A DNA stretch of 5,642 nucleotides from a virus (taxonomy: Duplodnaviria > Heunggongvirae > Uroviricota > Caudoviricetes). Where the stretch lies: the IMG/VR virus record IMGVR_UViG_2698536471_000011. One strand, written 5' to 3'. The notes beneath the pieces are model-generated. The model was not told the origin of the DNA, made no database searches, and saw only the letters and a list, made by a program, of their open reading frames with translations. Made by a program: the position numbers and the translations under genes. Below, one piece after another: positions 4,127-4,435 of this stretch. Within the stretch, counting starts at the first letter, position 1, and every line of letters starts with the position of its first letter.

Positions 4127-4356
4127 TCATCCTCTCCGGATAAGGCACGAGCGTAATCTGCCAGTGTTTTCTTGTTGGTTGCTGCACCATCCTCTTCCTG
4201 CAGGCTCGCCAGCAGTGCACTGAGATCCAGCTGCCAGCGGGAAATACTGATGCGCAGCGCCGCCAGCGCATAAACGAAGCAGTCGAGCGCCTCATTGCGT
4301 CGCTTTTTGCTGTCCCACAGTATTTTTTTCCTCTTTGTAGGCGATGGCGTTATCAC
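4123..4356 (-). pseudogene. A: Terminase large subunit (gpA-like) C-terminal fragment, ~70 codons
   Basis: ...[58 protein letters not shown] matches the gpA C-terminus as recalled. No ATG start (the supplied ORF begins at GTG), and the 5' side runs into Rz-derived sequence in another frame. Confidence 0.7.
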
Positions 4357-4435
4357 GGTAATGATTAACAGCCCATGAAAGGCAGACGATGAGGCAGATG
4401 ACCAGAACGTAGATAATCGCGGTTACTCTGCTCAT
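4292..4435 (-). pseudogene. Rz: Rz (i-spanin) 5' remnant, ~33 Rz-like codons then out-of-frame terminase-derived sequence; Rz1 absent
   Basis: ATG at 4435-4433 overlaps the endolysin TGA as ATGA. Translation [34 protein letters not shown] matches the lambda Rz N-terminus ([34 protein letters not shown]...) as recalled, then [17 protein letters not shown]. The same nucleotides in another frame encode the gpA C-terminus, so a deletion junction lies at ~4325-4345, near the poly-A/T run at 4322-4330. Confidence 0.7.

Follow-up and report, generated by a model that had tools for sequence, protein, structure and literature searches.

The lysis genes analysed here have their closest described counterparts in phage 21, which carries the S21 pinholin, the R21 SAR endolysin and an Rz/Rz1 pair, and in the cryptic prophage DLP12 of Escherichia coli K-12, which has the gene order essD-rrrD-rzpD/rzoD and keeps rzpD and rzoD as its Rz/Rz1 homologues. 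When the spanins are absent in phage lambda, the outer membrane remains intact and the cells round up instead of bursting, especially in the presence of divalent cations. Erosion of the prophages of Shiga-toxin E. coli by elements of the IS629 type is well described.

As cited in two later works (PMC9943667; bioRxiv 10.1101/2023.06.07.543989), Kusumoto et al. (2011) reported that the IS-excision enhancer IEE promotes the transposase-dependent excision of IS629/IS3-family elements, together with adjacent deletions. IEE is reportedly very abundant in enterohaemorrhagic E. coli and found in most of them (PMC9943667). The scars left by the loss of ISApl1 are IS-length deletions between microhomologies of 2-4 bp, and in vitro IEE extended microhomologies of 4 and 6 nt and did not extend those of 2 nt (bioRxiv 10.1101/2023.06.07.543989). 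Cleavage at one IS end is the starting point of the models proposed in the same work, and the strand is then transferred to a site near the opposite end (bioRxiv 10.1101/2023.06.07.543989).

Here we describe a prophage fragment in which the spanin gene Rz is cut short and joined to the end of the terminase gene A, and we compare this joint with an allele that still contains an IS. The window referred to below is the whole stretch of DNA that was analysed, 5,642 nucleotides in length.

Overall organization of the prophage remnant

The minus strand of the window is made up of pieces of a lambda-type late operon (Table 1). Next to the intact gpW gene, portal gene B is retained up to codon 53 and is joined to the last ~232 codons of the tape-measure gene H. 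This fusion corresponds to lambda 2836-2995 plus 12406-13103, and 9.4 kb (2996-12405) is gone. The B'::'H joint is blunt and without microhomology, and no IS is located at it in any genome examined. The fusion is followed by ~12 codons of the tail gene M (lambda M 13100-13137), and around 3032-3039 these give way to DNA for the C-terminus of a tail-fibre protein. In many other E. coli genomes the similarity to the window is confined to ~487 to 3035-3039, and this region is therefore common to EspK-carrying prophages.

Table 1 Features of the window with their coordinates and supporting matches
Feature	Position	Strand	Match or remark
Class I SAM methyltransferase, 3' end, ybcY-like	111-410	+	Sequence match
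tfa (tail-fibre assembly) remnant	416-611	-	Lambda 22425-22608
LRR protein, 453 aa, EspK-related	991-2352	+	Full-length match to phrog_2028 (unknown function)
91-aa ORF	2415-2690	+	Full-length match to phrog_5398 (unknown function)
M'::tail-fibre C-terminus joint	2807-3097	-	Pfam PF06820 Phage_fiber_C; M ATG at 3069
B'::'H fusion ORF, 285 aa	3066-3923	-	In frame; joint at 3763/3764
gpW head-tail joining protein, intact	3920-4126	-	Pfam PF02831, 1-66 of 66, E = 5.8e-38
Terminase large subunit A, 3' end	4123-4332	-	Last 69 codons and stop; without a start codon of its own
Fused ORF, Rz' and out-of-frame A DNA	4292-4435	-	47 aa, then stop
Rz-derived DNA (i-spanin N-terminal transmembrane segment only)	4331-4435	-	E2348/69 Rz nt 1-105
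Rz/A joint	4331-4332	.	Overlap of 2 nt: CT (+ strand), AG (phage sense)
SAR-type endolysin, 165 aa, intact	4432-4929	-	PF00959; PDB 4zpu, 3hde
Phage-21-type class II holin, 71 aa, Met1 and Met4	4929-5144	-	PF04971; apparently intact

The plus strand contains genes of other kinds. For a homologue of the LRR protein gene in O121 and other strains (~96% nucleotide identity), the annotated product is EspK, a type III effector; at this locus the annotation reads 'hypothetical protein' or 'type III secretion system protein'. The 91-aa ORF, for which no Pfam match was obtained, sits between this EspK-like gene and the tail-fibre remnant. At the far end of the window, the 3' end of the methyltransferase gene and the tfa remnant recall the right end of K-12 DLP12. 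Scans of the window with Rfam and for tRNA genes gave no hits.

In the gene map of NZ_CP027587.1 (266000-293000), from strain 2013C-4974, the element is positioned between fimZ/tRNA-Arg and ompT/envY. Both this site and its defective state are those of a DLP12-type cryptic prophage. The element of 2013C-4974 spans ~18 kb and harbors four 1310-bp copies of an IS3-family element. Taken as a whole, it is the wreck of a lambdoid prophage, lodged at the DLP12-type site in Shiga-toxin E. coli that carry eae and in their relatives.

The Rz/terminase joint

The 47-aa fused ORF is composed of Rz codons 1-35, followed by 12 out-of-frame codons of terminase-A DNA. Its ATG overlaps the stop codon of the endolysin gene (ATGA), which is the same overlap of R stop and Rz start as in lambdoid phages. 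The Rz part, 105 nt long, agrees in every base with the beginning of the complete Rz gene (145 aa) of E. coli E2348/69, and this agreement extends to ...TACAAAGAG; window 4333-4435 shares 92% identity with lambda Rz (45966-46068). Homology to Rz stops at codon 35 out of about 145-153. In line with this, the ORF matches the PHROG family phrog_13 'Rz-like spanin' at positions 1-41 of 154 (E = 1.3e-14). Residues 1-35 of the ORF include a 20-residue hydrophobic stretch.

At 4332 and below, the DNA is that of terminase A, of which the last 210 nt are present, in a reading frame different from that of the Rz stub. Window 3764-4332, which comprises the 3' end of A (lambda 2427-2636), W and the B fragment, shares 99.3% identity with phage 1H12; its identity to lambda 2427-2995 is 97.2%. 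The Pfam GpA_nuclease match to the A remnant covers profile positions 258-286 of 294, that is, the C-terminal end.

The homologies to Rz and to A both include positions 4331-4332. Moreover, all intact phage and prophage relatives cease matching the lysis side at precisely 4331/4332, which places the breakpoint well above chance. The original prediction had described a truncated Rz that switches, in another frame, to the tail of terminase A. Nucleotide alignment to the lambdoid Rz and A genes agrees with this description and locates the breakpoint at 4331/4332; the truncation stands, but the proposed length of ~33 codons for the Rz part is replaced by 35 codons with the 2-nt CT overlap, facing 69 codons of A.

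Relative to lambda, the joint skips 46071-48502 plus 1-2426, which amounts to 4,858 bp. The material lost includes the 3' part of Rz, the embedded Rz1 (46186-46368), bor, cos, Nu1 and the ~572 first codons of A. The lambda coordinates thus bear out the predicted loss of these genes, and also that of the cos site and the packaging functions, since cos, Nu1 and most of A fall inside the deletion. Remnants of both Rz and A are found in the RefSeq annotation of NZ_CP027587.1, where A is named 'terminase gpA endonuclease subunit, incomplete'.

A two-piece match to EcPF15 (H1) was considered as a relative of the joint and was rejected, because it has another breakpoint and represents an independent deletion. 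At this locus (L001 6124-7347), also a decayed lysis region of the DLP12 type, a terminase A fragment of 696 nt, longer than that of the window, begins ~30 nt after the endolysin gene, and no Rz is present.

An intact holin and endolysin in the absence of spanins

The two lysis genes located upstream of Rz' are both full length, as originally predicted. The holin covers positions 1-63 of 64 of the Pfam profile PF04971 'Bacteriophage P21 holin S' (E = 1.4e-32), matches PHROG holin families as well, and carries the name 'class II holin family protein' in NZ_CP027587.1. Residues 1-165 of the endolysin align to residues 1-165 of both PDB 4zpu (RrrD) and PDB 3hde (R21), with E ~1e-108, and differ from these crystal-structure enzymes by 5 substitutions (~97% identity). 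A hydrophobic N-terminal segment and the residues E35/D44/T50 can be read from its sequence. With a holin of the P21 S family and an enzyme that combines a SAR segment with a lysozyme domain, the two genes form a predicted pinholin/SAR-endolysin cassette.

The spanins present a different picture. The 47-aa ORF possesses the N-terminal transmembrane segment of an i-spanin, and the periplasmic coiled-coil (~110 aa) with the Rz1-binding C-terminus is missing from it. Lipoproteins were searched for by a lipobox scan, in which all three controls (lambda Rz1, lambda Bor and the E2348/69 Rz1) were recovered. No Rz1-like ORF was found in any frame of 4250-4440, in agreement with the original prediction, and no lipobox ORF that could serve as an o-spanin gene was found in, overlapping or after Rz. 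The same scan gave no credible candidate across the window or in L004 5900-15200, which covers the wider remnant. The sole hit, a 35-36-aa ORF at 55-165 within the methyltransferase gene, was judged spurious. In addition, a unimolecular spanin of the T1 gp11 type was detected neither in the remnant by the lipobox scan nor among the annotated genes of the element. By these searches, the element is without a spanin of either type.

A Stx1a prophage in the chromosome of the IS-bearing relative 2013C-4974 has an intact 164-aa Rz with an embedded Rz1-type ORF (MKLFALTLPLVTAAC...PPAPPAWIMQP...). The cell itself is not spanin-free.

An IS-bearing allele of the joint

Strain 2013C-4974, with the assembly GCF_003018375.1, an O5:H9, ST342, eae+, ehxA+ STEC with three stx1a genes (PMC12113909), is the only complete genome that matches the whole window, with one mismatch at 3785. 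The match is divided into two pieces, window 1-4332 and window 4331-5642, and 1314 extra bp are present between them. The insert consists of a 1310-bp element with the ends TGAACCGCCCCGG...CCGGGGCGGTTCA, which encodes an IS3-family transposase (RefSeq name 'IS3 family transposase, programmed frameshift'). The IS ends are 96-98% identical to copies annotated as IS1203, and a nearby IS copy contains the Pfam domains HTH_Tnp_1, HTH_21 and rve. By these matches, the insert at the joint is an IS629/IS1203-like element of the IS3 family, one of the copy-out-paste-in families (IS3, IS1, IS30) on which IEE acts.

In phage sense, the insert is flanked as ...AAAGAGCAG / IS / GGAAAAAAATAC, or, in a longer reading, ...TACAAAGAGCAG / IS / GGAAAAAAATACTG..., and the junction k-mers of this allele are ...AAAGAGCAGTGAACCGCC and GGCGGTTCAGGAAAAAAATAC. 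The IS at the joint has no 3-bp target-site duplication, with CAG on one side and GGA on the other. At the breakpoint, the intact Rz reads AAAGAGCAGCGC (longer, ...AAAGAGCAGCGCGAT) and the intact A reads GGATGGCAGGAAAAAAA (longer, ...GGATGGCAGGAAAAAAATACTG). On the A side, both alleles break at one and the same position, and codon 36 of Rz (CAG) is retained in 2013C-4974 and gone from the window. Removal of the IS and of 4 nt of the Rz flank would turn the IS-bearing allele into that of the window; this is a loss of 1314 bp between two CT dinucleotides, one of which straddles the IS terminus.

The locus combines two signatures. An IS without target-site duplication is placed between segments that lie ~4.9 kb apart in lambda, as in an IS-mediated deletion joint. 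The two alleles differ by the IS length plus a few nucleotides, with short microhomology, as in an IS excision scar.

Distribution of the two alleles

The exact 47-aa product is called on public-assembly contigs that fall into 29 index blocks, of which 24 were covered. An identical 66-nt joint is present at all ten loci retrieved, so that at least 10 independent NCBI assemblies carry it; one of the contigs is 4.4 Mb long (GCA_003015285.1) and has other IS copies nearby. Among 5,426 complete RefSeq E. coli genomes the IS-less joint was not found (0 of 5,426), the IS/Rz' junction occurs once and the 'A/IS junction twice. No intermediate, with an IS at the joint positions in an otherwise intact Rz or A, was found among these complete genomes. 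Assemblies with the IS-less allele outnumber those with the IS-bearing one, a count to be read with the fact that short-read assemblies, broken at IS copies, cannot show the IS-bearing allele.

Across 12 loci there is one real SNP (3785), and no SNP separates the two alleles; all remaining differences either come from N calls in draft sequences or belong to a recombination tract upstream of 5171. An attempt to polarise the alleles by SNPs fails, because this sole SNP is uninformative on the allele split.

Two loci, L005 and L011, keep the IS-less joint and switch above the holin (~5171-5212) to another late region. It contains Rem, DUF968, RusA, a Q-like gene, a DNA methyltransferase, a SASA esterase, DUF1378 and DUF826, and is 99% identical to a second remnant in 2013C-4974 (L020 25684-34374). 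This similarity implies that two prophages recombined in or just upstream of the holin gene.

Parallel IS events in related genomes

The second genome with the 'A/IS junction is OkiPb01713, of bovine origin from Japan, with the assembly GCF_055378215.1. Its junction is identical to that of 2013C-4974, its IS is 99.9% identical, and IS#2, Q, S, R and Rz' have been lost. More than one isolate therefore has the IS-bearing state, and the IS at the joint anchored a further deletion. As judged from the shared junction, OkiPb01713 descends from a 2013C-4974-like state. OkiPb01713 also contains one additional IS copy, flanked by a perfect GGA duplication, for which 2013C-4974 has the clean empty site; this copy provides an internal control for ordinary insertion.

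IS#1, located beside fimZ in 2013C-4974 (L017 5670-6984), has the flanks CAT/TTG and no duplication. OkiPb01713 (L014, phage-sense 5015-5030) is without IS#1 and without 5 flanking nt, TTGCG, with TGA as microhomology and a loss of 1315 bp. The IS#1 loss is a second scar of the same type as that at the joint. In addition, the second 2013C-4974 remnant (L020 34172-39023, NZ_CP027587.1 ~1.149-1.154 Mb) displays the order holin, truncated ORF, IS and 'J. The IS in this remnant has the flanks GTG/GTC without duplication, and tail gene J is without its N-terminus; this is therefore another IS-bearing deletion joint.

IS#2 (L017 7715-7730 and 9030-9045) has the flanks GATC/GATA and was left out of the count of scars, because a 4-bp duplication with one mismatch fits equally well. 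The same flanks can also be read as a GAT repeat of 3 bp that an extra C puts out of register, and in contig L004, which has no IS here, the clean site reads GGTGATACTGG.

A proposed history of the joint

From the logic of the junctions we infer that the IS-bearing allele preceded that of the window. It keeps Rz codon 36 (CAG), so that the window allele cannot be its ancestor by simple insertion and is taken as the derived one; a chance match of the three CAG bases has a frequency of 1 in 64. The absence of a target-site duplication (CAG vs GGA) is, in turn, what is expected if the IS mediated the deletion. We consider it probable that the joint was formed by an IS-mediated deletion that was followed by near-precise loss of the IS.

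In such a history, IS629/IS1203-like elements (IS3 family, 1310 bp) would first have entered the late region. An IS-dependent deletion would then have taken about 4-5 kb, from the 3' part of Rz through Rz1, bor, cos and Nu1 to most of A. It could have proceeded by recombination of an IS copy in Rz (duplication CAG) with an IS copy in A (GGA), or as an IS-adjacent deletion. The product, Rz'(36 codons)-IS-'A, would be the form that survives in 2013C-4974 and, further deleted, in OkiPb01713. Finally, the loss of the IS with 4 nt of the Rz flank (1314 bp, CT/CT) would have yielded the Rz'(35 codons)::'A of the window.

This last step would be of the event type that is promoted by IS transposase together with IEE. 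Both scars, at the joint and at IS#1, extend from one IS terminus (or within 1 nt of it) to 4-5 nt past the opposite terminus, which fits with a transposase-initiated event. The microhomology of the joint scar is 2 nt, below the lengths that IEE extended in vitro. The Sakai iee gene was located as ECs_1305, the IEE protein having the accession NP_309332.1, and the counterpart position in 2013C-4974, guided by synteny, is a rearranged region. About half of the confidence that we place in deletion and IS loss goes specifically to the IEE route, which is accordingly a tentative assignment.

The IS could also have been present and then lost through replication slippage of the host, or RecA-independent deletion at the CT repeats, without transposase or IEE. 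Such an account draws on the fact that the sequences show just an IS-length deletion at microhomology, and on the inactivity of IEE on 2-nt microhomology in vitro. However, spontaneous 1.3-kb deletions over 2-3-nt repeats are rare, yet this one element would have experienced two of them (IS#3 at the joint, and IS#1), and both have their ends at an IS terminus and 4-5 nt past the opposite one, in a transposase-like pattern. We therefore regard host slippage as unlikely.

A direct origin of the joint, in which Rz and A recombined illegitimately at the AG microhomology and the IS of 2013C-4974 and OkiPb01713 was inserted afterwards, is very unlikely in our assessment. The 2-nt microhomology at the joint, the plain B'::'H joint next to it, which has no IS in the genomes seen, and the greater number of assemblies with the IS-less allele would all suit this order. 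It requires, however, that the IS hit the exact joint, without duplication, and that it add CAG, which is the next Rz codon, whereas the canonical insertion of this IS type elsewhere in the element left a perfect duplication of 3 bp, and its empty counterpart is clean. An artefact of assembly, with a repeat collapsed from short reads, deserves hardly any credence: most contigs with the IS-less joint are short drafts, but assemblers break at IS copies rather than splicing them out and dropping 4 bases, and the identical joint recurs in the independent assemblies, one of them the 4.4-Mb contig that keeps other IS copies nearby.

Deletion by the IS and its later loss thus remain the preferred history. 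The Rz'::'A joint as such reflects ordinary prophage decay and was already known in the form of RefSeq pseudogenes; a truncated Rz and a terminase pseudogene annotated at this spot give the finding little weight alone, and the proposed history of IS excision is the only addition made here. Its value is that of a worked natural example, in which a clean-looking prophage gene fusion may hide an IS-mediated origin when the IS was later removed almost precisely. Comparison of the alleles, one with the IS and no duplication and one without the IS and with a few bases missing, can recover such a history.

Predicted functional consequence of the remnant cassette

If the late transcript is made, its predicted products are the pinholin, the SAR endolysin and an Rz stub of 47 aa that is anchored in the membrane. 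The i-spanin periplasmic domain, an o-spanin and the packaging, head and tail functions would be lacking, and the remnant alone could not break the outer membrane or build particles. For annotators this carries a warning, as a holin and an endolysin in an annotation do not amount to a working lysis cassette.

The spanin-less cassette is a by-product of decay, with no special design, because three internal deletions run across the element. The opposite reading, in which the intact holin-endolysin pair is a kept and selected module, for instance for the non-explosive release of cell contents, could point to the intactness of the pair while everything downstream is wrecked, to the Q antiterminator gene upstream, and to the retention of the cassette in two different upstream contexts. 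The loci are, however, too alike to reveal purifying selection, and OkiPb01713 is without the whole Q-S-R-Rz' block, so that we find selection highly improbable. A more specific form of this idea, that the pinholin/SAR pair beside Q is a domesticated module that permeabilises or rounds cells without outer-membrane rupture, and that the loss of Rz/Rz1 was adaptive, is given still less credit; if it were true, the release of toxin, DNA or vesicles would be examples of its roles.

Comparison with known systems

The element agrees with DLP12 in its chromosomal site between fimZ/tRNA-Arg and ompT/envY, in its holin and endolysin families, with the window endolysin called rrrD in RefSeq, and in the ybcY-like methyltransferase and tfa remnants at the far end. 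It differs in that its Rz ends at codon 35 and Rz1 is gone, and in carrying an EspK-like LRR gene and several IS629-like copies. The gene rzpD is annotated in one match of the complete-genome comparison.

With phage 21 the element shares a holin and an endolysin that match over their full length, whereas its Rz is truncated, its Rz1 is absent and the genes are not part of a phage genome. Compared with lambda Rz/Rz1, the window retains the first 35 codons of Rz with the N-terminal transmembrane segment, while the ~110-residue coiled-coil and Rz1 fall wholly inside the deletion.

The joint also resembles the IEE-promoted excision of IS629/IS3 elements and the loss of ISApl1 from Tn6330. Like these, it offers an allele pair with and without a 1310-bp IS3-family element, a loss of the IS length plus a few nucleotides over 2-3-nt microhomology, and larger deletions anchored at the IS. 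Unlike these, it is a natural polymorphism, in which the event is reconstructed from sequences. Moreover, the IS that was excised lay at a deletion joint without target-site duplication, a setting in which 'precise' excision is impossible.
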